From NCBI GenBank assembly GCA_947458095.1, contig CANGYO010000003.1, positions 1 to 55,588 on the forward strand: 55,588 nucleotides of DNA. The letters run 5' to 3'. Made by a program: the position numbers and the translations under genes. A model generated the notes under the pieces. The model was not told the DNA's origin. It made no database searches and saw only the letters and a list, made by a program, of their open reading frames with translations. This stretch comes from Vampirovibrionales bacterium (GTDB lineage Bacteria > Cyanobacteriota > Vampirovibrionia > Vampirovibrionales > JAJTHC01). Below are positions 32,801 to 51,256 of this stretch, in pieces (the stretch's first letter is position 1; every line of letters starts with the position of its first letter).

Positions 32801-33829
32801 CTAATTTTTTAGCGGTTGGCAATAAGCAATCAATTTTTTCACCACAGAAGGTAAAGTCTTTTTATGACTCATTAAATGTGCATCAATAGGGGTTTTTAAG
32901 GCATTAAAAAGAAATAGGCTCATTAATAAGCTAGTCAATTCTTTTGCTTTCTTTTCATTGGGGACGTCTTTAAATCCCAAGGTCTGTTGTTTTAAAAAAT
33001 AAGCACACACACTATTTATAATGCCTTCCATGGGGTAAGTTCCCGCATTGATGCCCGCTTTTCGTTCTACCTGTTTTTCTACACTTAAGCCTTTTCCCAT
33101 TTTGATTTGTTTGACACCAATATATTGTTGGGCATGTAAAGTTCTTAAAAAACGAAGTACGCCTAAATCAATGTTTGGTAAAAATCCCAATGCGTGTTGG
33201 AGTAATAAAGCACTATTTGAAATTTTCCCTCGTGTGGTTTTACACATTTCAGGCATATTTTTCAAATCAGTCAAACATGCCTGAAAAAGAGGCGTTACAT
33301 GACTTAATTTACCTCGTTCAGCAATACTTACATCACCTATTTTTTTGACCCATTGGCAAATTGAAGAGTTTTGCGTTTCTTGAGTTTCTAAATCTTTTTC
33401 CATTGCCTGAAGAAGTATTTTGTAAAAGTGTGTATTTAAGTGGGCAACAAGTCCTGTATTTGCGGTCATCCATAGATTGTAACGCACTTTTTCTGGCACT
33501 TCTAAACGTTGAATCAGTTGATCTAAACCAAAGGAAGCCACCCATGTCAGAACAACCGCTGAACGTTCAGCAAATTCAACGCTTGTTAATTTTTCAAAAT
33601 CGGCTTCACTTAACTTTCCTGCATCTTTTAATTTGCCGTATTTGAAGACACTTTGCCTTAGTGCTAATAGGTGTTTGCTTATAGCAAAGACTCCTTCAAC
33701 AGCGACCAATGGTGTTTTTTCCACTACCTTTTCTATTGTTTCTAATGGCTTCGGTACGTTTATTTTTGGAAGTGAAGATGCTACAACCGTACCCAAAAAA
33801 CCCACCACAAACTTACGCCTAGGGATCAT
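32801..33829 (-). CDS. AT-rich orphan hypothetical protein with RR-containing hydrophobic N-terminus
   Basis: 342-aa uninterrupted ORF. The N-terminus is MIPRRKFVVGFLGTVVASS. I recognise no family. It is visibly AT-richer than its neighbours. Confidence 0.45.
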   Translation of the reverse strand: MIPRRKFVVGFLGTVVASSLPKINVPKPLETIEKVVEKTPLVAVEGVFAISKHLLALRQSVFKYGKLKDAGKLSEADFEKLTSVEFAERSAVVLTWVASFGLDQLIQRLEVPEKVRYNLWMTANTGLVAHLNTHFYKILLQAMEKDLETQETQNSSICQWVKKIGDVSIAERGKLSHVTPLFQACLTDLKNMPEMCKTTRGKISNSALLLQHALGFLPNIDLGVLRFLRTLHAQQYIGVKQIKMGKGLSVEKQVERKAGINAGTYPMEGIINSVCAYFLKQQTLGFKDVPNEKKAKELTSLLMSLFLFNALKTPIDAHLMSHKKTLPSVVKKLIAYCQPLKN

Positions 33830-34142: not shown

Positions 34143-36296
34143 ATGATGGCTAACACCGCCGTAATCCCGACAGGCCTGCAAGGATTTTTCGCCAAAATCC
34201 TGCAACATAATGATGTCTTCCTTGCGGTTGGGATGATCCTCATCGTGCTGATGATGATTCTGCCCTTGCCTCCCTTTTTGCTCGATATTCTGCTTACGCT
34301 CAACCTTTCGCTCAGCATCATCATTCTATTGGTGACGCTCTACACCAAAGAACCCTTGCAGTATTCCACTTTTCCCACCTTATTACTCGTGTCTACCTTG
34401 TTTCGCTTGGGCTTGAACGTGAGTTCGTCAAGGTTGCTACTGCTCACAGGGGAAGCAGGGGCGGTGATTGAATCCTTCGGGAACTTTGTCGTCGGCGGAA
34501 ATTACGTCGTGGGTTTGTTGATTTTCATTATTTTGATGATTATTAACTTCATGGTTATTACCAATGGGGCAGGGCGAGTTTCCGAAGTTTCCGCTCGCTT
34601 CACCTTGGATGCCTTACCAGGTAAGCAATTGTCGATCGACGCCGACTTAAACGCAGGCATGATTACCGAAGCCGTCGCCAAAAAACGACGGGTGAACGTC
34701 CAAAAAGAAGCGGACTTTTACGGTACCATGGATGGTGCGTCGAAGTTCGTCAAGGGCGACGCCATTGCAGGCATTATCATCACCGTGATTAACATCGTCT
34801 TTGGTTTGATTATCGGGGTGGTACAATTGGGTATGGATCCTGCCACCGCCGCAGCGACGTTTACGACCCTCACCGTAGGGGATGGCTTGGTGTCGTCTTT
34901 ACCTGCTTTGTTGATTTCATCCGCCACAGGTATTTTGGTGACTCGTGTGAGTGAAGACGACGACGCCAGTTTGGGCGATGAACTCGGCAAGCAGTTATTG
35001 TCGAACTATAAAGTGCTGGCTATTTTATCAGGGCTTTTATTGTTGATTGGTTTCATTCCCGGTATGCCAAACGCTCCGTTCTTATTCATCGGAGCCATTG
35101 CGGGAGCAGGTGCCTTTTATACCTTTAAAAATACCAAAACCAAAGCCAAAGCCGATTCCGACAAAATAACCGCCGATGCCCTCGCACAAGACAAAAAAGA
35201 CAATCCTGCGAAAACCAGCACCGAAGAAGTCTTGGAACTCTTGCATATTGAGCCTATGGAATTGGAATTGGGCTACCGCTTGGTGCCGTTGATTGAAGCG
35301 GAATCGGGGGGGGATTTACTCGAACGCATCGCCAACATTCGCAAGCAAATGGCGCAAGATTTTGGCGTGGTGTTGCCTTCTATTCGGGTGAGAGACAACC
35401 TACATATTGAAGCCGATGCCTACACGCTGAAGCTTAGAGGCATCGAGCTGGGGCAAGGGAAAATCAATGCCGATATGTTGTTGGCGATGTCCACCGATCC
35501 TGATTTGGCGGATGAAGTCGAAGGCATCGCCACTATAGAGCCAGCCTTTGGCTTACCTGCGTTATGGATCGACAAAGACGATCGTGAAGAGGCGGAAATG
35601 AACGGCTTTACGGTGATTCATCCTGCGGCGGTTTTGGCGACGCACTTAACGGAGCTGATGAAACGCAACCAATCGCAGATCGTCACCCGTCAAGATGTCA
35701 AGCAACTCCTCGACAACCTCAAAAAAACGAGCGAAGCCCATACCTCTTTGGTGGACGACTTGGTGCCGTCTCAACTCAGCATTTCAGAACTGCATTACAT
35801 TTTGCAATTGTTACTTATGGAAAATGTCTCTATTCGGGATTTAACGTCCGTTTTAGAAAGCATTGCCTACCATTGCCGAATTTCAAAGTCGCCTGATTAT
35901 TTGGTGGAACAGTGTCGTGTCGCCTTGAGCCGTCACTTATGCAAGCAACATGTGGATGAAAGCAGCGGTAAATTGCCTGTTTTGACCTTATCGCCTGATG
36001 TCGAAGAAAATATGGCGAATCACTTGGTGAATACCGCCACGAATAAGGACGGTCAGCAGACCTTTATGTTGGCGTTGAATCCGCAGTATACGCAGAACTT
36101 GCTTTCTACGATCAACCAGCAGATTGAAGAAGTCTTGACGACACAAGGCGTGCAACCTGTGTTGTTGTGTAACGGAAAATTACGCAGTCATGTGCGTAAG
36201 TTGATCGAGCGTATGTTGCCTCAAGTGGCGGTTTTAAGCTACAACGAGATAGGCCCGCTCACGCAAGTGCAGAGCTACGGCAGCATCAGGGTTTAG
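34143..36296 (+). CDS. flhA: Flagellar/type III secretion export apparatus protein FlhA (SctV family)
   Basis: 717 aa. The FHIPEP core is present: FPTLLLVSTLFRLGLNVSSSRLLL, VIESFGNFVVGGNYVVG, LPGKQLSIDADLNAG, GASKFVKGDAIAG, plus a large cytoplasmic C-domain. Confidence 0.9.
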   Translation: MMANTAVIPTGLQGFFAKILQHNDVFLAVGMILIVLMMILPLPPFLLDILLTLNLSLSIIILLVTLYTKEPLQYSTFPTLLLVSTLFRLGLNVSSSRLLLLTGEAGAVIESFGNFVVGGNYVVGLLIFIILMIINFMVITNGAGRVSEVSARFTLDALPGKQLSIDADLNAGMITEAVAKKRRVNVQKEADFYGTMDGASKFVKGDAIAGIIITVINIVFGLIIGVVQLGMDPATAAATFTTLTVGDGLVSSLPALLISSATGILVTRVSEDDDASLGDELGKQLLSNYKVLAILSGLLLLIGFIPGMPNAPFLFIGAIAGAGAFYTFKNTKTKAKADSDKITADALAQDKKDNPAKTSTEEVLELLHIEPMELELGYRLVPLIEAESGGDLLERIANIRKQMAQDFGVVLPSIRVRDNLHIEADAYTLKLRGIELGQGKINADMLLAMSTDPDLADEVEGIATIEPAFGLPALWIDKDDREEAEMNGFTVIHPAAVLATHLTELMKRNQSQIVTRQDVKQLLDNLKKTSEAHTSLVDDLVPSQLSISELHYILQLLLMENVSIRDLTSVLESIAYHCRISKSPDYLVEQCRVALSRHLCKQHVDESSGKLPVLTLSPDVEENMANHLVNTATNKDGQQTFMLALNPQYTQNLLSTINQQIEEVLTTQGVQPVLLCNGKLRSHVRKLIERMLPQVAVLSYNEIGPLTQVQSYGSIRV

Positions 36297-37011
36297 AAAC
36301 CAAGTGTGCGTGTTGTTCAGCCAAATAGGGGGTTACTGTGTGGTGCAAGTCGTTCACTTTAAAGGCTAAAGATTCACCGATTGTTTCATCTACTCCTAAT
36401 ACTGCTTTGTAGTGTGTTAAGGCATCTGAAGCACGACCAAAAAACGGTGCCCACGCATCTAAGACTAAAGCATTTCCCCACGTTTTGGGGTCGTGCCATT
36501 GAGTCTTTGGGTCTACTAATGTAACTAAAAAATGGTGATCTAAACAAATTTGAGTCCTTTTTTGATTTACGATTTGGGTGTGTATCATAGCTGTGTTGAT
36601 ACCCATACGGTACAAAGCGTCTTGTAATATTAAATTCAGATAATCGCAATTGCCAATTTTTTTAGTCGTTAACAGCTTTTTTACTAATTCAAAGCGTTGC
36701 ATTGTATATTCCAAAGGAGAGTTGATAGAGGCAAGAGATTCAGCAATTAAAGCCTGTTCCTGTCCTATTTTGGTAAATAAGTCACGTGCAGACTTTTGTT
36801 TCTCCTTTGCCTGCGTTCCGAAATTTAAGTTGCCGAATGAAACTACCTCTTTTGTAGAACTTTTCGTCTCTAAAAAAATACGTTCTTTCTCATAAACTTC
36901 TCGAGCTATTCGAATAACTTCTTCTTCAATCCGACTTTGTGATCCAGAGCGAGCTGAAGGTGGAAGAAATTGGGGAGATAAAGTTGGTATCATAAGAGGT
37001 TTCATTTTCAA
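36286..37011 (-). CDS. AT-rich orphan protein with Cys-His-Asp (transglutaminase/NAT/papain-like) pattern
   Basis: 241 aa. IGNCDYLNLILQDALYRMGI, then DHHFLVTLV about 37 aa later, then LVLDAWAP about 27 aa after that. Its 3' end overlaps the flhA 3' end by 11 nt. Confidence 0.4.
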   Translation of the reverse strand: MKMKPLMIPTLSPQFLPPSARSGSQSRIEEEVIRIAREVYEKERIFLETKSSTKEVVSFGNLNFGTQAKEKQKSARDLFTKIGQEQALIAESLASINSPLEYTMQRFELVKKLLTTKKIGNCDYLNLILQDALYRMGINTAMIHTQIVNQKRTQICLDHHFLVTLVDPKTQWHDPKTWGNALVLDAWAPFFGRASDALTHYKAVLGVDETIGESLAFKVNDLHHTVTPYLAEQHAHLVSKP

Positions 37012-37142
37012 ACTCCAAAATTGAAAGGGTCATAAAAAGCGTTCATCGCTACAAAGACATAAAACACCCTCAAGCTTATTTGATGCCCCCTCAAGCATCA
37101 GGGTTTAGGGGTTTTAAAAAACCAGGGGGTTTTCTCGTGACT

Positions 37143-37287
37143 TTCTGACACACGAAACCCTCATTTCTGACACACAAAACCCCCGATTCTGACACACAAA
37201 ACCCTCGATTCTGACACACAAAACCCCCGATTCTGACACACAAAACCCCCGATTCTGACACACAAAACCCCCGATTCTGACACACGA
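37143..37287. repeat. Tandem direct repeat, 22-bp unit x 6 plus a partial seventh
   Basis: Unit starts at 37143, 37165, 37187, 37209, 37231, 37253 and 37275. The consensus is ttctgacacacaaaacccccga; four copies are identical, copy 1 and copy 3 are variants, and the last copy is truncated. Confidence 0.95.
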
Positions 37288-37300
37288 TTTCAAGGGGAAA

Positions 37301-37374
37301 CGTCATGTTGTTGCAACGAAACATCTCCTCCCTCTGTGTCGGGGGGAGATCCTTCACAGTCGTTCAGGATGACG
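37301..37374. repeat. Family 1 hairpin repeat (P2)
   Basis: Arms cgtcatgttgttgcaacgaaacatctcc and ggagatccttcacagtcgttcaggatgacg. It directly abuts the tandem array. Confidence 0.75.
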
Positions 37375-37459
37375 TCTTCAATTTTCAAGGAGCCACTCTT
37401 CTTCATTATGACCCATTTTCAACACCTCGCCTAGTGGCTAAAACCCACGTTTTTCATTT

Positions 37460-38266
37460 TTAAATCCGCAATAACATCGTCAGCATGACATGGCGGATGA
37501 TTGGGAACAAGGTCGGCACGGTGACGAAAAAGATAATCAAGCCCAACAACGGCTTAATGCTCGCACTCAACTGAAAGACAGGAATCTGTTGAGCGGTTTT
37601 GTTCACAATACCTAAAATACAATCCATTAAAATGGTGGTAATGTAAAACGGTGCCGAAATCAGCATCGCCAAGGGAATAATCGACGCCGACGTGTCAATC
37701 CACTGATAAATGGTAATGACCTTGAAAAAAGCGATATTCAACACATGCAAAGGCACCAAGGCAAGGCTCTTATCCAGCGTTTTCAGCAACAGCTCGATGC
37801 CCCCCACATACACAAACACAATCGACGCCAAGCCACTGAAAATCGGTCCCATAATGGCTGAACTTTGCTTGGTAGACGGATCCATCATGTTCGCCATTTG
37901 AAGCCCGATCTGCATGGTGATGAATCCGCCAGCCATGGCGACCGCTTCAAAAATCAGTCGCATCGCAAAGCCAATGAACAAACCCAGTACGATATTGACC
38001 ACCATAAGCATCATAAACTCGGTAATGACAGTGCTTTTCAATATATGCGCCGACGCCTGCACCGAAGGATGCGACATCATCGCAAACGTCAACATCAACA
38101 ATAAGGCGATTTTAAATTGAGCGGGAATGTCTTTTCGGCTGAGTACAGGGGCAATGCTGATGAATCCGCCAAAGCGACATAGCACCAAAAGCCCTGCGTC
38201 AATGCCTCCGTTGGCTTGGGCATGTAAGACGTGGAAGCCCTGTAATATCGCTTCAAAACCTGCCAT
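37460..38266 (-). CDS. fliR: Flagellar/T3SS export gate protein FliR (SctT family)
   Basis: 268 aa and polytopic. LVLCRFGGFISIAPVLS..IPAQFKIALLLMLTF is a typical FliR N-terminus. Its ATG overlaps the fliQ stop (TAATG). Confidence 0.85.
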   Translation of the reverse strand: MAGFEAILQGFHVLHAQANGGIDAGLLVLCRFGGFISIAPVLSRKDIPAQFKIALLLMLTFAMMSHPSVQASAHILKSTVITEFMMLMVVNIVLGLFIGFAMRLIFEAVAMAGGFITMQIGLQMANMMDPSTKQSSAIMGPIFSGLASIVFVYVGGIELLLKTLDKSLALVPLHVLNIAFFKVITIYQWIDTSASIIPLAMLISAPFYITTILMDCILGIVNKTAQQIPVFQLSASIKPLLGLIIFFVTVPTLFPIIRHVMLTMLLRI

Positions 38267-38673
38267 TAGGGTTCCACCGTTTTACGGCTGGCTTGTGCCG
38301 AATTGCGTGCTTGCCGTTTTTCTTGCATGAGGTAGACCGTGCCTTTTTCACCTGCCTGCTTTTGATATCCCGCATTTTTTTGTTGAGGCGGCAATAAGAA
38401 ATGCCCAGTGGCTGGCACGACTTGAAACGCCAACTGCACAGAATCTCGAATGTACTGCCCTGCCATTTCAAGCATGGTACCGCCTGCTAATATCAGGATG
38501 AGGAAGACCACGATCATTTTAGGTACGGCGGAAAGCGTTTGTTCTTGCACTTGGGTCACGGCTTGCAAAATCCCCACAATCAAGCCAATCACTGCCGCTG
38601 CTAGAATAGGGGGCATCGAAAGCATGAGGCTCAATAAGATGCCTTGTCTCACATGTTCGAGTAGGTAATCCAT
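38266..38673 (-). CDS. fliQ: Flagellar/T3SS export gate protein FliQ (SctS family) with C-terminal extension
   Basis: The first ~88 aa are a typical FliQ (LLSLMLSMPPILAAAVIGLIVGILQAVTQVQEQTLSAVPKM). A further ~45 polar/basic residues precede the stop. Confidence 0.8.
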   Translation of the reverse strand: MDYLLEHVRQGILLSLMLSMPPILAAAVIGLIVGILQAVTQVQEQTLSAVPKMIVVFLILILAGGTMLEMAGQYIRDSVQLAFQVVPATGHFLLPPQQKNAGYQKQAGEKGTVYLMQEKRQARNSAQASRKTVEP

Positions 38674-38730
38674 GGGGGCAACACTTTCTTTGGGGGGCTT
38701 TAAAACTTATGGGCTTCTTTCAGGAAGCTC

Positions 38731-39390
38731 CTAGTTGAAGCTTTGAATGAGACCTCTCACAATTAAGGACCAACCGTCCACCGCAATAAAAATCAAGATC
38801 TTAAACGGCAATGAAATAATCGTGGGAGACAACATCATCATCCCAAGCGCCATCAAGATGTTGGCAACCACCAAATCGATAATGACAAAGGGAATGAAAA
38901 TCACAAAGCCGATTTCAAAGGATGTTCGCAATTCGCTGAGCATAAAAGCGGGCGTGATTTCCCAAATGCTCAACTCATTCACCGAGTCAGGGGCTTTTTT
39001 ACGAGACACTTCTAGGAAGATTCGGACATCTTCTTCACGAGTTTGACGCATCATAAACTGCTTGAGTGGCACGACGCCTTTGTTCATAATATCCATGACA
39101 TTCGATTTTGGGTTGTTCAACAAGGGATTCACCGCCGTGTACATCTCCCCAAAAACAGGACTCATGGTGTAAAAGGTCAAGATTAAGGCAAGCCCTACTA
39201 AGACCATTGAAGGGGGAACTTGTTGCGTTCCCATGGCTTGTTTGAGAATGGAAAAGACGATGACGTATCGTAAAAAGCTCGTCATGCCTGACACCATAAA
39301 CGGAAGCAGGGTCAAGCTTGCCATGAGCAACATGAGTTGCAAGGCAGGGTCTAAATTGGCAAAGGCTCCTGAAAAAGCGGCGGTCGCCAT
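38731..39390 (-). CDS. fliP: Flagellar/T3SS export gate protein FliP (SctR family)
   Basis: TSFLRYVIVFSILKQAMGTQQVPPSMVLVGLALILTFYTMSPV and the C-terminal GFVIFIPFVIIDLVVANILMALGMMMLSP. Confidence 0.9.
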   Translation of the reverse strand: MATAAFSGAFANLDPALQLMLLMASLTLLPFMVSGMTSFLRYVIVFSILKQAMGTQQVPPSMVLVGLALILTFYTMSPVFGEMYTAVNPLLNNPKSNVMDIMNKGVVPLKQFMMRQTREEDVRIFLEVSRKKAPDSVNELSIWEITPAFMLSELRTSFEIGFVIFIPFVIIDLVVANILMALGMMMLSPTIISLPFKILIFIAVDGWSLIVRGLIQSFN

Positions 39391-39455
39391 GGGGTGTCTT
39401 CCTTTTAAGCGGTGTTTTTAGAAAGTTTTACGAAAAAGTCTAATAAAGGGGAATA

Positions 39456-39526
39456 CGTCATGTTGAGCGTAGCGAAACATCTCCCCCAAACGTCTTGGCA
39501 GATCCTTCACATGCATTCAGGATGAC
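39456..39526. repeat. Family 1 hairpin repeat (P3) in the fliO-fliP spacer
   Basis: Arms cgtcatgttgagcgtagcgaaacatctccc and ggcagatccttcacatgcattcaggatgac, preceded by aaaggggaata. Confidence 0.75.
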
Positions 39527-39595
39527 AATAGACTTTTGCAACACTATTACACGCTTATTAAAGCACGCCAAATGCTTTATTTTTCAGAGTTTTCG

Positions 39596-40195
39596 CTATT
39601 TTAAGCCGAATGGTGGATGCGACGACGACGGCGGATTCCCCCACGACTGCGGATTCCCCTGCGTCAAGGGAAAGAGGCTCCGCACGCCTTGTAAAAACGT
39701 GCCTGAACGAGGACTGCTCGGAGCCGTGACCCCTGCTTGAGTGCTGGCACTGTTATAGCCTGTATCGGTTGGGGTAATCGCCATGCCTCGGGTGCCTGCG
39801 GCGTCTTCGTGCGTGGTTTTTTCAGCTTCGTAGGCGTCTTGTAGGGCTTCGACATAGGCTTGAGACGGATCTAGCTTGGTGAGAAAACGCAAGCCGTCCG
39901 TGCCTGAAGAGACGAGAAAGCGTTCATGTTCACATTGAATAATCATCAACTGCTTGTTTTCGTCAAGCTCTAGCGTTTCTTCGACTTTAAGTTTGCTTTC
40001 ATCTTCTTGATGAGGGGGATGCCCCATGCCCACCCAACTACGAATGATTTGCACGACTTCGGGCTTGGTTTTCAGGAGCCACAAAAAAGCCACCAGCCCT
40101 CCGATAATGAGAACGCTCCACAAGCCAACGCTTCCCATGTACTTCCAAATGAGGGTTTGACTACTAGGGGTGGCAAGGGTCGTGGCAATAGGCAT
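39596..40195 (-). CDS. fliO: FliO-like single-pass membrane protein with Gly/Pro/Ser-rich tail
   Basis: ATG at 40195. One TM helix (LWSVLIIGGLVAFLWLL) is followed by LKVEETLELDENKQLMIIQCEHERFLVSSGTDGLRFLTKL, resembling the FliO core. It lies upstream of fliP. Confidence 0.55.
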   Translation of the reverse strand: MPIATTLATPSSQTLIWKYMGSVGLWSVLIIGGLVAFLWLLKTKPEVVQIIRSWVGMGHPPHQEDESKLKVEETLELDENKQLMIIQCEHERFLVSSGTDGLRFLTKLDPSQAYVEALQDAYEAEKTTHEDAAGTRGMAITPTDTGYNSASTQAGVTAPSSPRSGTFLQGVRSLFPLTQGNPQSWGNPPSSSHPPFGLK

Positions 40196-40333
40196 GGTGA
40201 TGTCTCCTTTGTTGAAGATGTTTTGCTTATTATAACATTGAAGACCTGTTTTGTCTTTTTTATTCCAAATACGCCAAACGCACAAAATCGTGTAAAATAA
40301 GGACTGTACCCTTTAGACGTTGAGTCCCCAAGC

Positions 40334-41509
40334 ATGAAACCCATTCCCCTGTGTGAAGCTGATTTAAATGAAGACGACGTACAAGCGGTGGCATCCACTT
40401 TGCGAGACGGCTGGATCTCTTCCGCCGCCCCTGTGGTGGAAGCCTTTGAAGCCGCCTTCCTCGCCCAGCTCCACGCATGGGGAGCCAGTCCCGATTTAGG
40501 ATGCGTCGCCACTCAATCAGGCACGTCCGCCTTGTGGATGTGCTTGCACTTGCTCGACCTTCCCGCAGGCACTGAAGTGCTTTGCCCAGCCACCAGCTTT
40601 GTGGCGAGTATTCATCCGTTTTTGTACCAAAAGCACCGCCTCCGCTTGGTGGATGTGCATCCGCTGACCTTTGCCCCCACGCTAGAGTCGTATCAATCGG
40701 CGAAAACGTCCGAAACGAAGGTCGTTTTGGTGACGCATCTGTATGGACTTGCCATGCCTGAACTGCTGAAATTACGTCAGTGGTGCGACGCTGAAGGGCT
40801 TATTTTGATTGAAGATGCCGCCGAATCGCTAGGCACACTGGTCGACGGCAAGCCCGTGGGAACGATCGGGCATTACGGCTTTTACAGCTTCAACGTCAAC
40901 AAAACGCTTACCACCGCCAGCGGAGGCATCTTGGTTTCGGAAGATCACACCCTGCTCGCTAAACTTAAGCATCAAAGCACGCAAGCCAAGTGCTATAGTA
41001 CAGGCGAACTCTTTCACGATGCCATCGGCTTCAACCTACGGATGAACGCCTTGCACGCCAGCTTAGGTATTAGCCAACTCAAGCGACTGCCTGCATTTTT
41101 GGATGCCAAGTGTCGCATCGCCGAAGGGTATTTTCAGGCGTTTAAGGGGCAAGCGTCTTTGGATTTTGTGCATCATCACAATCCGCCGTATGCTAGGGCG
41201 TTTACAGGCATCACGCCGAGCTATTGGTTGAATCTGCTTTATGTGGACGATCACGCCAAACGCAAAGCCTTGCAAGGAGCTTTACAGGCTCAAGGCGTGC
41301 AGGTGCGACCTGTGTTTATGCCGTTTACGGCGTTTGACTATGTGCATCCGTTTTTGGTGGAAGCGTCGTTGCAGGAAGTACGCTCGCAATTTAAAAATGC
41401 CTATGCCTTGTGGGAAAGGGGCATCAATTTGCCGTCGTCTCCGCACTTGAGCGAAGGCGATCAGGCTCGTGTGATTGAACTTGTTTTAGAAGGAAGTAAA
41501 CATGATTAA
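40334..41509 (+). CDS. DegT/DnrJ/EryC1/StrS family PLP-dependent sugar aminotransferase
   Basis: 391 aa. The N-terminus has L.EDDVQAV..TLRDGWIS. The candidate PLP-Lys region is YSFNVNKTLTTASGGIL. Confidence 0.8.
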   Translation: MKPIPLCEADLNEDDVQAVASTLRDGWISSAAPVVEAFEAAFLAQLHAWGASPDLGCVATQSGTSALWMCLHLLDLPAGTEVLCPATSFVASIHPFLYQKHRLRLVDVHPLTFAPTLESYQSAKTSETKVVLVTHLYGLAMPELLKLRQWCDAEGLILIEDAAESLGTLVDGKPVGTIGHYGFYSFNVNKTLTTASGGILVSEDHTLLAKLKHQSTQAKCYSTGELFHDAIGFNLRMNALHASLGISQLKRLPAFLDAKCRIAEGYFQAFKGQASLDFVHHHNPPYARAFTGITPSYWLNLLYVDDHAKRKALQGALQAQGVQVRPVFMPFTAFDYVHPFLVEASLQEVRSQFKNAYALWERGINLPSSPHLSEGDQARVIELVLEGSKHD

Positions 41510-41990
41510 AGTCTTGATGATTTGCATGGGCAATATTTGCCGATCACCCCTAGCCCACGGCGTTTTGGACTATCTCGTGAAAGACGCGGGACTTAGCGAA
41601 AAAATCCACGTCGATTCAGCAGGCACGCATTACTATCACGTCGGTTGCCTGCCCGATGAGCGTTCGATCGACAAAGCCCGCGACTACGGCATTGACATCA
41701 CCACACAACGCGCGCGGCAACTCACCGCCGAAGACTTCAGCGACTTTGATTACCTGCTGGTGATGGACAAACGCAACTTACGAGACGCTTCAGTCCTTGC
41801 CCCCACGCCTGAACTTGCCCAAAAGTTGACGCTATTTTTAGATTACAGCTTGGGTGATTTCAGCGAAAGCGAGGTGCCTGATCCCTATTATGGGGGCATT
41901 GATGGCTTTGAGCATGTGTTTCAGCTGGTCAAAAGTGCCAGCGTCGGCTTTTTGGCGCATCTCCAAGAAGATGCTAGGATTTCATGTTAG
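41502..41990 (+). CDS. Low-molecular-weight protein-tyrosine phosphatase
   Basis: VLMICMGNICRSPLA is the CX5R(S) P-loop, and a DPYY Asp loop is present. It overlaps the DegT gene by 8 nt. Confidence 0.9.
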   Translation: MIKVLMICMGNICRSPLAHGVLDYLVKDAGLSEKIHVDSAGTHYYHVGCLPDERSIDKARDYGIDITTQRARQLTAEDFSDFDYLLVMDKRNLRDASVLAPTPELAQKLTLFLDYSLGDFSESEVPDPYYGGIDGFEHVFQLVKSASVGFLAHLQEDARISC

Positions 41991-42008
41991 AATAAAAGCA
42001 CTTCTACA

Positions 42009-43439
42009 ATGAAAAAGGATTTTAAGATGACTCTAAATACAGGTAACATTCAAATAAGCGAATTTTCGATTTTAGGCTTGCATGGCAATAAGAACATTCG
42101 CCTAAAGTTGGAAGACAACACGCTTATTTTAGTGGGTGCAAACGGCACGTACAAAACCACGATTTTAACCTTGTTTTACAGCTTCCTCGCTGGAGATGTA
42201 GAGGGGTTGGCGAAGTATATCTTTGATTCGTTAGAAATGGTGATTAATGAGAAAAGTTATTCTGTTCAATACACAGATATTGAAGAGTTTCTATTTGTAG
42301 AATGGATTAAGCAAGCAAATCTTCCGTCAATTGTAAAGCGAGAGTTATTGAATAATAATTCACTTTTATCAAAAAACACACTGCGAAAATTAGAGGAAGA
42401 AGAATCATTAGAGTCTATGTTGAGTTTTCTGTCAGAAAATAAGGCTCCTGTATCTCGTGAAAGATCCCAAAGTCAACAAGCTATGTATCACTACTTAGCA
42501 ATTGTAAAAGAAATAAAAAAAGTTCTGGAGCCACATAACATTCAATTCCTATACTTGCCCACTTATAGAAGAATTGAAGAAAAATTACAAAAACTTGACG
42601 AACCTCAAAATAAACGGCGGATGTTTTCGAGTCTACCTCTTGATAAAGAACAGGATGAAACATTTTGTCGAAAAATTATCGAGTTTGGTATGGAGGATAT
42701 TCAAAAATTACTGGAAAACAAAATAAAATTTTTGAAAAATAAAAAAACAGAAAGTGAAACGTATCTGAAAAATGAGTTTGCCGAAATGGCCTATGATGAA
42801 GAGGTTTATCAAAATATAAGTAAAGATGATTTTGAAAAATATTCAAGCGACTTAATTCAAAAAGTATTCGACCGTATCAAAAAAGACGAACAAATAAAAC
42901 CCAAATTAAGGTCTTCTCTGTTAGATCCACACATCCTTGAAGTAGAAGAATCCAAATCTCTAAAAACATTACACATCTTAAAAAGGTACATTGAATCGTA
43001 TCAGAAAACGTTTGAATATGAAGAACCTTTAAATCAGCTCTGTGAAGCGTGTAATCGCTACTTGCACAGCAACGAAATTGTTTACGACCCGACTGAGCCA
43101 GCAATCTATATTCGCAACCGTAAAACATCCGAAAACTCTCTCGAACATCGGATCGAGCTTTCCCAGTTGTCTTCAGGGGAAAAGCAGTTGGTGTCTTTGT
43201 TTACGCACTTGTATCTGGCAGACGGGACGCAGTATTTTGTGATTATCGATGAGCCTGAAATCTCCCTTTCCGTGGAATGGCAAGAGACTTTTTTAGAAGA
43301 TATTAGAAATGGTACGTTTTGTTCAGGCTTGTTTGTCGCCACGCATTCCCCTTTCATGTTTGACAATTCTTTGCGTAAGTATGCCCATGGCGTAGGACGC
43401 TTTTTGGAAGTCGTGGAGCCAAGCGATGACAAGCAATAA
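42009..43439 (+). CDS. ABC/SMC-type (AAA_15/21-like) ATPase, AriA/AbiLi-like component of a split OLD-family system
   Basis: 476 aa. P-loop LILVGANGTYKTT, a long K/E-rich helical insertion, ABC signature QLSSGEKQ, Walker B YFVIIDEPEISL, and H-loop FVATHSP. It is strongly AT-rich compared with its flanks. Confidence 0.7.
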   Translation: MKKDFKMTLNTGNIQISEFSILGLHGNKNIRLKLEDNTLILVGANGTYKTTILTLFYSFLAGDVEGLAKYIFDSLEMVINEKSYSVQYTDIEEFLFVEWIKQANLPSIVKRELLNNNSLLSKNTLRKLEEEESLESMLSFLSENKAPVSRERSQSQQAMYHYLAIVKEIKKVLEPHNIQFLYLPTYRRIEEKLQKLDEPQNKRRMFSSLPLDKEQDETFCRKIIEFGMEDIQKLLENKIKFLKNKKTESETYLKNEFAEMAYDEEVYQNISKDDFEKYSSDLIQKVFDRIKKDEQIKPKLRSSLLDPHILEVEESKSLKTLHILKRYIESYQKTFEYEEPLNQLCEACNRYLHSNEIVYDPTEPAIYIRNRKTSENSLEHRIELSQLSSGEKQLVSLFTHLYLADGTQYFVIIDEPEISLSVEWQETFLEDIRNGTFCSGLFVATHSPFMFDNSLRKYAHGVGRFLEVVEPSDDKQ

Positions 43440-44247
43440 TACTCCTTTTGACGAGCAACTTATTCAGAAAAAAAAAGCGAATCACACAATTGAATATCAA
43501 CGCTTTTTAAAGCAAGTAATAAGCGAAGAAGCCTGTTATTTTTGTGTGGAAGGGGAGGATGATTTTAAGTTTTATACCTCTTATTTTGACTTTAAGTATC
43601 GAATAAACAAGAGAAAAAAAGTTATCTTAAAAAATAAAAAAGGCGTTTTAAATCTTTTTGAGCTTTATGGCAAAGAACCCTCTCTTTTTGATACTGTTCA
43701 AGGACAAAAGTTGTTTTTTGTGGACAAAGATTTAGACTCCAATTTGACCCATGAACGTTTATTCGTAACCTGTGGTTATTCGTTTGAAAACTATCTGTGC
43801 CATCTCGAAACAGTTTGTCGAACTTTAGAAGAATTAAACAGTGAGGTTAGAGAAAAAGAAATTAAAGTGCAATTCGAGAAATATACACAATCATTCGTGC
43901 AAATCTATTCCCCTATTATGTCTTTTATACAAGAAAAAAGAAATTATTTCGATAATTATAACCCTATCGGCTTGTTTCACAATGTAAAATGGGAGAAAAA
44001 AGATAAAGCAGTTAAACATTTAGAGAAAATAGATCCGAAGTTTCAGGATACTATTCTTTGGAATTTAAATGATGTACGTGGTAAATATGTGTGTGAGTTT
44101 TTAATTCTTTTTGTTCGTGAACACCTTACTGAAGAAGGTGATAAAAATAATCATAAGCTAATCAAGAAAACGCTTTTTTGTCATGTACAAGCACCCATCC
44201 CAGCCCTAGATGATTACTTCAAACGTCACATCAAGGAGGCAAGCTAG
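43426..44247 (+). CDS. DUF4435/Toprim-like protein, AriB/AbiLii-like putative nuclease effector
   Basis: 273 aa, overlapping the ATPase gene by 14 nt. Acidic motifs occur in Toprim order: YFCVEGEDDFKFY, LFFVDKDLD, GYSFENYL. The call is from pattern and partner; no HMM was run. Confidence 0.6.
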   Translation: MTSNNTPFDEQLIQKKKANHTIEYQRFLKQVISEEACYFCVEGEDDFKFYTSYFDFKYRINKRKKVILKNKKGVLNLFELYGKEPSLFDTVQGQKLFFVDKDLDSNLTHERLFVTCGYSFENYLCHLETVCRTLEELNSEVREKEIKVQFEKYTQSFVQIYSPIMSFIQEKRNYFDNYNPIGLFHNVKWEKKDKAVKHLEKIDPKFQDTILWNLNDVRGKYVCEFLILFVREHLTEEGDKNNHKLIKKTLFCHVQAPIPALDDYFKRHIKEAS

Positions 44248-44655
44248 ATGCTAAGCCCCACGCAAGCCGAAGCCTTGTTTCAAGAGGCGAAAAAAGCCAG
44301 CGAAGCGTCCTATTCACCCTACAGTCAATTCCCTGTGGGAGCAGCGTTGCTCCTTGCGTCTGGCGACATCTTCCACGGATGCAACGTCGAAAATGCGAGC
44401 TTTGGACTCACCATTTGTGCAGAACGTACCGCCTTGGTCTCATGGATTTCACAAGGTCGTCAAGCAGATACCATTGTGGCAATCGCCGTGTATGGCGCCA
44501 AAACACCGCATCATCACATCACGCCTTGTGGGGCGTGTCGGCAGTCGTTGGTCGAGTTTTGTGGGGACGATACCGTGCTGGTTTTTCGAGATGCCTTTGG
44601 CGAACTCACGCAAAAGCCTGTGACGGCTTTCTTGCCCGATCGTTTTGAATTGTAA
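44248..44655 (+). CDS. cdd: Cytidine deaminase (homotetrameric type)
   Basis: SPYSQFPVGAALL, GCNVENASFGLTICAERTA, and PCGACRQ zinc ligands. The ATG directly follows the previous TAG. Confidence 0.9.
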   Translation: MLSPTQAEALFQEAKKASEASYSPYSQFPVGAALLLASGDIFHGCNVENASFGLTICAERTALVSWISQGRQADTIVAIAVYGAKTPHHHITPCGACRQSLVEFCGDDTVLVFRDAFGELTQKPVTAFLPDRFEL

Positions 44656-49903: not shown

Positions 49904-51256
49904 ATGCTACACCTCAAGTTTCACGCCCTTGAAGCCGTTAGTCGTAATTACGCCCCAAACCTTGAAGCTCTCTTAAAAGACTTCCCACCACTCGATGCCA
50001 ATGCGGTCGCCGTACTGTTATGGGGGCATATTCCCAAGCTCGGTTTGAAGCGACAAAAGCAGTTGTTTCAGTCCTTTAGTGGGGAATTGTTGTGGCAGTT
50101 GTTTTGGGTGCCTCCGCAATGGGGGGCGGAACATTTTGGCGAAAGCTTTTCATCTTTTCCTAGCACCTTGCTAAAAGCATGGGAAGAAAAGCAAGTCTAT
50201 TTCAAAGAACATTTACGCACCGTTTTGAATCATTACCAAACCCAAGACGTCGGCTGGATGGGCTGCCATGACGAGCGTTTTCCCGAACGGCTTGCTCAAA
50301 TCCATGAATCGCCTTCGATCTTGTTTTTTCAAGGCAATATAGCATTACTACAGTCGGAACATCCCTTTTTGTCCGTCGTTGGCACTCGGCATGCCAGTGA
50401 TTATGCCTGCGAACAATTGATGCGTATTTTAGAAGAAGCGGCTCCCCTAAAGCCGTGCATCATCAGTGGGCTTGCCATGGGCATTGATGCGGTCGCCCAC
50501 CAAACGGCGATCAATAACCAGCTCCCCACGATTGCGGTACTGGCGGGGGGCTTGGATTATGTCACGCCTCCGTGTAATGAGTATTTGGGTCGTGCGATTT
50601 TGGAAGAAAATGGCTTATTGTTGAGCGAAATGCCCTTGGGCGTTCCGCCTATACCGAAGTCGTTTCCTCGACGTAATCGCTTGATTGTGGGCTTAAGTCC
50701 TGCCTTGTGGGTGGTGGAAGGAAGCTTGTTGAGTGGCACGATGGTCTCCGCTCGCATTGCGTTGGAAGAAAGTCGAGATGTCGGCGTTCTACCTATGGAT
50801 ATTACCCGTGACGGTGCCGCAGGGCCGTTGAAGTTGTTGAAAGAAGGGGCGATGCCCATTAGTTGCGGTCAAGATTTGGCGGATTTGCTCGGGATTGTGG
50901 GGGCGGAAAAATTAGTTTCGACGATCAAAGTGCTTTCGGAAGAAAAACGCACCGACTTACTTGAAAACATTCAACGTAAAACGGCAAGTCCCAAAGTGGC
51001 TAAAGTCGAAGTAGAAGCGGTTGAAGAGATCGAAGAAAAAATAGAAAGCCCTCCAATAGAAGCCGAAGTGGATGAAGCAGACGACAACGTGTTGTTGTCT
51101 ATTTTACGGCAAAGTAAAGCCAAAGAACTGCATGTGGATTCCATGGCGTTATTGTCAGGCATGAAGCCCCATGATGTCTTGGGGGAATTGAGTATTCTAG
51201 AAATTACGGGGCGTGTGGAGCGTCGTTCAGGAAACGTCTTCACGTTAGTGGTTTAA
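49904..51256 (+). CDS. dprA: DNA-processing protein DprA (Smf) with acidic linker and C-terminal winged-helix-like domain
   Basis: SVVGTRHASDY, SGLAMGIDAVAHQ, FPRRNRLIVGLS, and a VVEG..LSGT-type motif. Confidence 0.88.
   Translation: MLHLKFHALEAVSRNYAPNLEALLKDFPPLDANAVAVLLWGHIPKLGLKRQKQLFQSFSGELLWQLFWVPPQWGAEHFGESFSSFPSTLLKAWEEKQVYFKEHLRTVLNHYQTQDVGWMGCHDERFPERLAQIHESPSILFFQGNIALLQSEHPFLSVVGTRHASDYACEQLMRILEEAAPLKPCIISGLAMGIDAVAHQTAINNQLPTIAVLAGGLDYVTPPCNEYLGRAILEENGLLLSEMPLGVPPIPKSFPRRNRLIVGLSPALWVVEGSLLSGTMVSARIALEESRDVGVLPMDITRDGAAGPLKLLKEGAMPISCGQDLADLLGIVGAEKLVSTIKVLSEEKRTDLLENIQRKTASPKVAKVEVEAVEEIEEKIESPPIEAEVDEADDNVLLSILRQSKAKELHVDSMALLSGMKPHDVLGELSILEITGRVERRSGNVFTLVV

Follow-up and report, generated by a model that had tools for sequence, protein, structure and literature searches.

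A two-gene island lies in a 55,588-nt stretch of DNA from a Vampirovibrionales bacterium (contig CANGYO010000003.1, assembly GCA_947458095.1), a stretch that we call the window and whose coordinates are used throughout. Two co-oriented open reading frames (ORFs), at 42009/42027-43439 and 43426-44247, occupy the space between the gene for a low-molecular-weight protein tyrosine phosphatase (PTP) and the cytidine deaminase gene cdd, flanking identities that are both backed by Pfam. The PTP gene ends at 41990, the ORFs overlap by 14 nt, and the TAG stop codon of gene 2 stands immediately before the ATG of cdd at 44248, an arrangement on which the ORF list and the sequence agree and which a first-pass annotation of the window had described correctly. 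Gene 2 encodes 273 amino acids (aa), and gene 1 encodes 476 aa when read from 42009. Gene 1 more probably starts with the ATG at 42027, which has an AAGGA 7 nt upstream, is the gene caller's choice in all relatives and marks where the family alignment begins; the gap to PTP is then 36 nt, while the 18 bp reported earlier holds for the ATG at 42009. Upon examining the homology, fold and motifs of the two products together with the insertion site, presence/absence polymorphism and mosaicism of the locus, we conclude that the pair is very probably a PARIS-type (class 4 OLD-like) abortive-infection system with an AriA sensor ATPase and an AriB Toprim nuclease. It is a divergent new member of PARIS, both components of which are already recognised by standard defence-finder profiles.

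Profile searches of both proteins led to PARIS. Gene 1 passed the Pfam thresholds of AAA_15 (PF13175; 54 bits vs a cut-off of 32.1, E 2.7e-14) and AAA_21 (PF13304; 51.6 bits vs 27, E 1.9e-13), and gene 2 passed that of DUF4435 (PF14491; 44.9 bits vs 27, E 1.6e-11), in line with the earlier proposal of an ABC-type ATPase next to a DUF4435 protein. A PADLOC check, which that proposal had also called for, assigned gene 1 to AriA and gene 2 to AriB: the best match of gene 1 was the AriA model PDLC04164 (3.2e-29), with the best PtuA model (5.7e-13) sixteen orders of magnitude weaker, and the AriB model matched gene 2 at 4.2e-15. When searched as a single sequence against the PDB, gene 1 had E. coli AriA as its best match (6e-10), and a 52-sequence family profile found AriA at 1.9e-22, followed by PtuA at 8e-9. 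The AlphaFold model of the gene 1 product (pLDDT 81) shows two ABC lobes parted by helical insertions, with helices at residues 82-170 and 222-343, and Foldseek against the PDB returned AriA chains at all of ranks 1-14 (TM-score 0.50-0.63, E down to 2e-14) and PtuA thereafter.

The motifs of gene 1 only partly bear out their first description, as the LSSGEKQ signature, IIDEPE and THSP are all present, while the P-loop listed with them has the non-canonical form GANGTYKTT. Across the clade formed by the Vampirovibrionales proteins, this Walker A motif reads G-[E/Q/A]-N-G-T-[H/Y/N]-K-T-T, the glycine before the lysine being replaced by H, Y or N in all eight clade members, whereas it is G in 41/52 family members. 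K43, the Walker B residues D408-E409, the LSSGEKQ signature and the THSP H-loop are present and invariant. As the ATPase site is otherwise strictly conserved, the protein is under selection, and it may handle nucleotides differently from E. coli AriA, in which ATP binding is required for trigger recognition. The C-terminal lobe further carries an acidic pair, E417/E420, equivalent to D401/E404 of E. coli AriA at the AriB interface, and, by alignment, HV1 (hypervariable region 1, Table 1) appears collinear with the trigger-sensing IS1 of E. coli AriA (122-180) and with its central and radial-pore loops (113-124, 161-174). The pore residues of E. coli AriA are poorly conserved and have been proposed to evolve toward recognising different triggers (Burman et al., PMC11464382).

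For gene 2, the fold and the catalytic residues likewise point to AriB. Its predicted structure (pLDDT 83.5, pTM 0.81) matched solely the AriB chains 8v46_D and 8ux9_A of the PDB at E<1e-3 (E 7e-5, full-length alignment), with the next match at E>1. The motifs VEGEDD, VDKDLD and SFENYL are all present as first noted, and the five Toprim acidic residues that they contain (E42, D46, D100, D102 and E121) do not vary across 42 aligned DUF4435 homologues, in agreement with the Toprim fold expected for this protein. In E. coli AriB, the two-metal site is formed by E26, D30, D88, E90 and E122 (PMC11464382, PMC12409363), and on the basis of the motif and its ExxxD spacing we infer that E42/D46 correspond to E26/D30. 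K71 and R218-G219-K220 are also invariant or nearly so in the 42 homologues, and K71 aligns with K64 of E. coli AriB, one of two lysines reported to be needed for defence (PMC12409363). The claim that both proteins are compact applies to AriB, which is ~30-45 aa shorter than usual DUF4435 proteins (300-320 aa), and fails for AriA, at 470 aa against 464 aa in E. coli.

Table 1. Features of the island and its flanks in window coordinates.
Feature	Coordinates	Strand	Basis or remark
PTP gene, left flank	41502..41990	+	Pfam; 3' end EDARISC common to all occupied loci, not in empty ones
Left copy of imperfect 7-bp direct repeat, ATGTTAG	41984..41990	+	Gives PTP its Cys codon end and TAG stop
Island leader	41991..42026	+	Alternative in-frame ATG at 42009; AAGGA Shine-Dalgarno at 42015-42019
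ariA-like gene, predicted ABC/Rad50-type sensor ATPase	42027..43439	+	470 aa (476 aa from 42009); Pfam, PADLOC, PDB, Foldseek
Non-canonical Walker A, GANGTYKTT	42135..42161	+	K43 kept; Tyr42 in place of Gly before Lys (GxxxxGK[ST])
HV1, aa 76-170, helical insertion with indels	42252..42536	+	Clade identity 0.19-0.50
LPTYRRIE motif (Q-loop region)	42555..42578	+	Conserved between the variable regions
Indel-rich linker, aa 185-215, predicted disordered	42579..42671	+	pLDDT <50 for residues 182-211
Hypervariable region 2 (HV2), aa 216-330, coiled-coil/IS2-like helices	42672..43016	+	Two deep allele groups; overlaps the 375-bp tract
Conserved C-terminal ATPase lobe	43017..43436	+	Near-native GC3
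Signature LSSGEKQ	43167-43187	+	In C-terminal ATPase lobe
Walker B, IIDEPE	43242-43259	+	In C-terminal ATPase lobe
H-loop, THSP	43341-43352	+	In C-terminal ATPase lobe
ariB-like gene, predicted DUF4435/Toprim nuclease	43426..44247	+	273 aa; Pfam DUF4435, PADLOC AriB, Foldseek AriB
Toprim Glu42 and Asp46 (VEGEDD)	43549..43563	+	Invariant in 42 DUF4435 homologues
DxD motif, Asp100 and Asp102 (VDKDL)	43723..43731	+	Invariant; aligned to E. coli AriB D88/E90
Glu121 (SFENYL)	43786..43788	+	Invariant; aligned to E. coli E122 (SLENYF)
AAGGAGG in conserved ariB tail (RHIKEAS*)	44233..44239	+	Acts as cdd ribosome-binding site
Right copy of 7-bp repeat, ATGCTAA (cdd start)	44248..44254	+	
Cytidine deaminase gene (135 aa), right flank	44248..44655	+	Native GC; Pfam

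We consider it quite unlikely that the pair belongs instead to another type of OLD-superfamily ATPase plus Toprim system (AbiL/RloAB-, MADS3-4- or Gabija-like) that cuts DNA or another substrate without a PARIS-type hexamer. AAA_15/21 ATPases are related to one another, identity to E. coli PARIS is low, gene 1 has secondary matches to PtuA, mad3, TIGR04435 and the OLD protein 6p74, and OLD and topoisomerase II Toprim domains occur among the weak structural matches of gene 2 (ranks 6 and 25), all of which such a system would explain. The OLD matches are weak, however, with 6p74 at E 2.7e-5 (N-terminus of the ATPase, family profile) and a Foldseek probability of 0.44 for the Toprim domain, whereas AriA and AriB top both proteins by sequence profile and by fold. 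Upon scoring gene 1 against the NCBIfam alternatives, we found all of them far under their cut-offs, and we rejected MAD3 of MADS (NF047739; 17.6 bits vs 420), the restriction-system-associated AAA ATPase TIGR04435 (32.2 bits vs 300) and PtuA of Septu (16.9 bits vs 500), the last also because the partner here is a DUF4435 and not an HNH protein. For gene 2, no Pfam family besides DUF4435 appeared at E<=0.1, with RloB, Toprim_Old (PF20469) and DUF4276 among those absent. A class 1 OLD nuclease or Gabija GajA was discarded as well, given two separate ORFs and no PF20469 match. Hence, of the PARIS/AbiL-like label first given to the pair, the PARIS half agrees with profile and fold, and the AbiL half does not fit: gene 2 lacks RloB and Toprim_Old matches, and AbiLii has no detectable similarity to AriB (PMC13064643); RloAB fits no better.

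The wider family supports the pairing of these two proteins. ATPases of ~453 aa in many phyla form a very large AriA family, with 33-37% identity over 95% of the length, and in both distant members that we examined the next gene encodes a ~300-320-aa DUF4435 protein, a gene order that all relatives with the pair also show. One of these distant pairs (L174; 453-aa ATPase and 318-aa DUF4435) sits inside a type I restriction-modification operon. There, at L174:2378-13362, the pair lies between hsdS and hsdR, with KilA-N, YhcG/PDDEXK and HipA-type genes also present, as is typical of a defence island. The ATPase family is found on viral contigs and in phrog_7507; the clade AriB, on the other hand, had no significant match in GenBank phages, PHROGs or BFVD viral structures and is therefore not visibly phage-borne, though the ATPase family is. 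The clade AriB is an isolated branch, as its profile matched 880 of 1.84 billion representative proteins at E<1e-3 and three at E<1e-30, the next best being 4e-18. A second PARIS-like pair was seen in Vampirovibrio sp. DET50b (JACEUU010000002; L023:2930-6148, minus strand), consisting of a 441-aa AAA_15/21 protein and a 294-aa DUF4435 protein. This pair adjoins an Abi_2 (AbiD/F-like) gene, with which it makes up an AT-rich islet (GC 0.27-0.39); the islet lies ~1 kb upstream of PTP-cdd.

The composition of the island sets it apart from its surroundings. Its GC content of 0.347, against a window mean of 0.459 (standard deviation 0.027, 2.2-kb windows; 0.2% of them equally low), makes it the lowest-GC 2.2-kb stretch of the whole window, as expected for the AT-rich island that had been described from hand counts. 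The GC content at third codon positions (GC3) is 0.37 in gene 1 and 0.30 in gene 2, against 0.54-0.58 in the neighbouring DegT gene, PTP and cdd. The AT-richness is uneven, with GC3 of 0.43-0.60 in the conserved ATPase lobes and 0.13-0.33 in the variable segments. Scans revealed no tRNA integration site near the island, no integrase or transposase next to it and no long terminal repeats, the 7-bp repeat at its junctions having come from the empty-site comparison. Promoter and terminator matches were no commoner than in shuffled sequences, leaving no island-specific signal of either kind, which fits read-through from the operon. ariB is translationally coupled to ariA through the 14-nt overlap and an upstream GGAG. 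cdd itself was ruled out as a third component of the system by its native GC and by its adjacency to PTP in genomes without the pair. Elsewhere in the window, a second AT-rich patch (32801-33829, minus strand, GC ~0.36) contains an ORF of 342 aa that matched nothing in Pfam or PADLOC, and a flagellar export cluster (FlhA, FliR, FliQ, FliP, FliO) spans 34143-40285, directly upstream of DegT.

Comparison with related genomes revealed the insertion site. A PTP-based scan of species-representative genomes put the window in Vampirovibrionales (Melainabacteria), and a metagenome scan with PTP yielded one close locus only (L094), so that the allele set was not enlarged. In six relatives with PTP 86-93% identical (L014-L016, L018-L020), ariAB is absent and PTP abuts or overlaps cdd, leaving one ATGCTAA or ATGTTAG, within which the stop of PTP and the start of cdd overlap, as in the L015 junction TCATGCTAAGC. 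Since PTP adjoins cdd also in two more distant genomes (L023 and L024), the empty state is most simply the ancestral one. The occupied loci (the window, L008, L010, L012 and L017) share identical junctions, left ...TCATGTTAG|AATAAAAGC... and right ...GCAAGCTAG|ATGCTAAGC..., as well as a near-identical island leader. The imperfect 7-bp direct repeat that bounds the island, ATGTTAG...ATGCTAA, consists of copies of the single ATGCTAA of empty sites with two differences, both silent (Cys TGC to TGT, stop TAA to TAG). From these junctions, we infer that the cassette was inserted once, in an ancestor, and that the stop/start overlap was duplicated in the process.

The presence of the island does not follow the relationships of its hosts, as genomes with and without it are intermingled on DNA trees of DegT, PTP and cdd. 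The occupied L008 and the empty L015, for instance, share 97% DNA identity in DegT, 96.6% in cdd and 95-100% over 1.6 kb downstream. The empty sites in close relatives support horizontal acquisition of the island, as first proposed from its composition. The import was not a one-off recent event, however, as the island occurs with identical junctions in at least five lineages and its segments have been exchanged among them. Outside the DegT-PTP-ariAB-cdd block, gene content varies among relatives, whereas the block itself is kept. The pair is conserved at the ptp-cdd junction in some relatives, as a native operon member would be, yet its composition there is still foreign and it is missing from sister genomes. 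A housekeeping role in the DegT-PTP-cdd operon, such as RNA processing by an M5-like Toprim RNase, would account for the co-transcription and translational coupling of the pair with housekeeping genes and for the resemblance of the AriB active site to M5 RNase (PMC12409363). Given that the pair is missing from 6/7 close species representatives, as well as from relatives further away in which PTP-cdd is retained, and given its foreign composition and extreme allele diversity, we find such a role scarcely credible. A different AT-rich gene (GC 0.32-0.35) lies between DegT and PTP in two genomes that lack ariAB (L015:5950-7008, CAZDMD010000003; L016:5935-7008, JBIKTR010000023). It encodes a ~355-aa multi-pass membrane protein with a weak DUF2157 match and is translationally coupled to both neighbours; the two proteins are only 23% identical, neither has a PADLOC match, and L008, the ariAB-carrying sister of L015, lacks the gene. 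With this gene present in L015 and L016 and absent from L008, the DegT-PTP-cdd operon seems to have two cargo slots.

Within the clade, conserved and hypervariable segments alternate along the pair. In AriA, conservation covers the ~75 N-terminal aa, the LPTYRRIE motif and the ~140 C-terminal aa; in AriB, it covers the two tips, the ariB tail being preserved in every allele. AriA residues 76-170 (HV1), 185-215 and 216-330 (HV2) and most of AriB vary. The hypervariable region of AriA is 22-60% identical between clade alleles, which is as low as its 27-36% identity to family members of other phyla. For the ATPase lobes, identity reaches 87-94% inside the clade and drops to ~50% with outsiders. 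Conservation in the clade correlates with GC3 (Spearman 0.72, p=5e-5), and the AT-rich signal of the island is essentially the signal of its variable cassettes. Could the locus be a decaying or ATPase-dead remnant, its AriA inactivated by the Walker A substitution? The glycine is indeed replaced throughout the clade, and two alleles are visibly damaged or shortened: in L006:263-1092, ariB is broken after codon 207 and continues in the +1 frame, by a frameshift pseudogenization or an assembly error in a low-coverage contig, and L012:5228-6523 encodes an AriA of only 431 aa with a large deletion within HV1. We nonetheless regard decay as highly improbable, as at least five independent lineages have kept both ORFs intact, and the conserved lobes and strictly kept motifs (K43, D408-E409, signature, H-loop) beside divergent hypervariable segments point to strong purifying selection on the ATPase.

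The alleles are mosaics of one another. Relative to the window, L012 is 56% identical in AriA and 89% in AriB, L007 is 96% identical in AriA and 44% in AriB, and the nearest relative of the window switches about five times over 3 kb. Two tracts, one of 375 bp (42686-43060) and one of 123 bp, are letter for letter the same in the window and L008. For the longer run, at a background identity of 85%, we calculated a chance probability of ~1e-26. Because the same two genomes are only 70.6% identical in DegT and share no flank match above 50 bp, the 375-bp tract indicates that diverged lineages have recombined recently. Each main haplotype was recovered in two or more independent assemblies, from different samples or runs, which rules out an assembly artefact as the source of their mosaicism. 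The C-terminal tail of AriA (…WQE…EPSDDKQ or …WQK…EEKEAS) co-segregates with the N-terminal type of AriB in 9/9 pairs, a linkage expected from their adjacency that also fits the E. coli interface, where helix alpha-2 of AriB docks on D401/E404 of AriA (PMC11464382), positions occupied here by E417 and E/K420. Co-evolution of ariA and ariB has been reported between PARIS clades (PMC11464382) and contrasts with the sensor/effector reassortment seen here; our literature search on recombination in PARIS found no relevant description. At 49904-51256, 5.6 kb downstream of the island, is a gene for DprA, which processes DNA in natural transformation, and cassette segments could plausibly have been exchanged by homologous recombination after transformation.

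For the mechanism, we build on E. coli PARIS, in which AriB is sequestered in an AriA6:AriB3 complex, is released by a trigger such as Ocr, dimerises and nicks tRNA (PMC11464382, PMC12409363). AriA, a Rad50-like ABC ATPase with helical insertions, would keep the AriB nuclease inactive in an AriA-AriB complex until a phage protein bound its variable helical/pore region in an ATP-dependent manner and AriB was released. The freed AriB would then dimerise and cut specific host tRNAs at its two-metal Toprim site (E42, D46, D100, D102, E121), so that translation stops and anti-phage activity results. The coincidence of the variable positions with the regions that PMC11464382 ties to trigger recognition and calls poorly conserved argues for this PARIS assignment. 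As for its history, the cassette may have entered once, exactly at the ATGCTAA stop/start overlap of the PTP-cdd operon, in a Vampirovibrionales ancestor, and would since have been expressed as part of that operon. Afterwards, it may have spread and in places been lost, and homologous recombination among related species may have reshuffled it, with the conserved ATPase lobes and gene tips as crossover anchors and the AT-rich sensor (HV1, HV2) and nuclease segments as exchangeable alleles.

The same toxic chemistry could in principle serve the cassette itself, namely as a mainly selfish toxin-antitoxin (addiction) element kept by post-segregational AriB toxicity and not by phage defence. The depositors of the PDB entries label AriA an 'antitoxin', a review classes PARIS as a type II toxin-antitoxin system (PMC13064643), and the tight gene coupling and the operon-embedded insertion would suit such an element. 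The frequent clean absence in sister genomes, however, implies a cassette that is readily lost or was never fixed, and hypervariability in the presumed trigger-sensing region and in the effector fits an external arms race better than self-maintenance. We thus deem an element maintained mainly by addiction very unlikely, while noting that addiction and defence roles are not mutually exclusive.

Several points weigh against the PARIS assignment. We know of no phages or triggers for this uncultured Vampirovibrionales lineage. Identity to the experimentally studied PARIS proteins is 14-17% over structural alignments, with modest global TM-scores of 0.46-0.63, and a single-sequence phmmer search of AriB against the PDB gave no match, while a 42-sequence DUF4435 profile found AriB chains only, and weakly (E 0.12), so that the fold comparison is needed for this protein. 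The alpha-2 arginines R28 and R31, which dock on AriA in E. coli, are not conserved in AriB here, and the replacement of the Walker A glycine by Tyr, His or Asn could impair the ATP binding that E. coli PARIS needs. The cassette lies off any prophage or satellite and outside a defence island, unlike many PARIS loci, and the short contigs L004-L007 could be assembly chimeras.

Beyond a PARIS system as such, we tentatively raise the possibility that the locus is a chromosomally fixed, operon-embedded and polymorphic immunity locus of one bacterial order. Sensor modules (the AriA insertions) and an effector module (the AriA C-terminal tail with AriB) might be interchangeable AT-rich cassettes, exchanged between species by homologous recombination via the conserved anchors, their diversity kept by frequency-dependent selection from phages and the loss of the Walker A glycine reflecting a changed nucleotide control. 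In that case, the sensing specificity of PARIS and the target choice of AriB would be mapped directly by the natural series of alleles. The material amounts to a natural experiment, in that genomes with neighbouring proteins ~90% identical carry many AriA sensor/AriB combinations on a constant ATPase scaffold next to clean empty sites. As the variable segments fall at the presumed trigger-recognition positions of E. coli AriA, the alleles may provide ready-made chimeras for trigger and tRNA-target specificity, and the variant Walker A offers a test of how strictly canonical ATP binding is required for PARIS. The precise stop/start insertion in a housekeeping operon, the interleaved presence and absence, the sensor/effector reassortment and the clade-wide Walker A variant are the less ordinary aspects of the locus, and its junctions suggest that a defence cassette can enter exactly at an overlapping stop/start codon and leave the operon unbroken. 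Experimental work on PARIS has covered E. coli and Lactococcus. The Vampirovibrionales (Melainabacteria), to which our assignment would extend it, are uncultured, form a sister group of Cyanobacteria and have a known predatory bacterium among their relatives, and our literature search found no description of defence systems in them.

Set against known systems, the island is closest to PARIS of E. coli B185 (PDB 8UX9, 8V45-8V49; Rousset 2022; Burman 2024, PMC11464382; Deep 2024, PMC10802264), which likewise consists of two co-oriented genes and whose proteins are the best structural match of both products here. AriA is of similar length in the two systems, with split ABC lobes and helical insertions in both, and they have in common the Walker A lysine (K39 in E. 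coli), the Walker B DE (with E393 in E. coli), the signature, the H-loop and the acidic docking pair (E417/E420 vs D401/E404), as well as a DUF4435/Toprim AriB with all five acidic catalytic positions and the K64-equivalent lysine. Variability is concentrated here at the positions where E. coli AriA senses Ocr. Unlike its E. coli counterpart, AriA here lacks the glycine before the Walker A lysine; AriB is ~35 aa shorter than E. coli AriB and has not kept the alpha-2 arginines; and the cassette is chromosomal, within a housekeeping operon, whereas E. coli PARIS occupies a P4 satellite or prophage hotspot. AbiL (AbiLi/AbiLii) and RloAB share the combination of an ABC/Rad50-type ATPase with a Toprim-type nuclease in trans, but their second component is RloB/OLD-like and of a different family from the DUF4435-only gene 2. 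The class 1/2 OLD nucleases (P2 Old, Thermus scotoductus OLD 6P74, Gabija GajA) have the ATPase superfamily and two-metal Toprim chemistry in common with the pair, yet are single polypeptides with a Toprim_Old domain. PtuA of Septu, also retron-associated, belongs to the related AAA_15/21 ATPases and ranks second as a structural class, but its partner PtuB is an HNH nuclease. The pairs of ~453-aa AAA_15/21 and ~300-320-aa DUF4435 proteins in Bacteria and Archaea, finally, have the same partner and gene order as here, in defence-island contexts, and lactococcal PARIS-i is itself 453 aa long (PMC13064643); relative to this wider family, most of which keeps the canonical GxGK Walker A, the Vampirovibrionales clade forms a separate branch.

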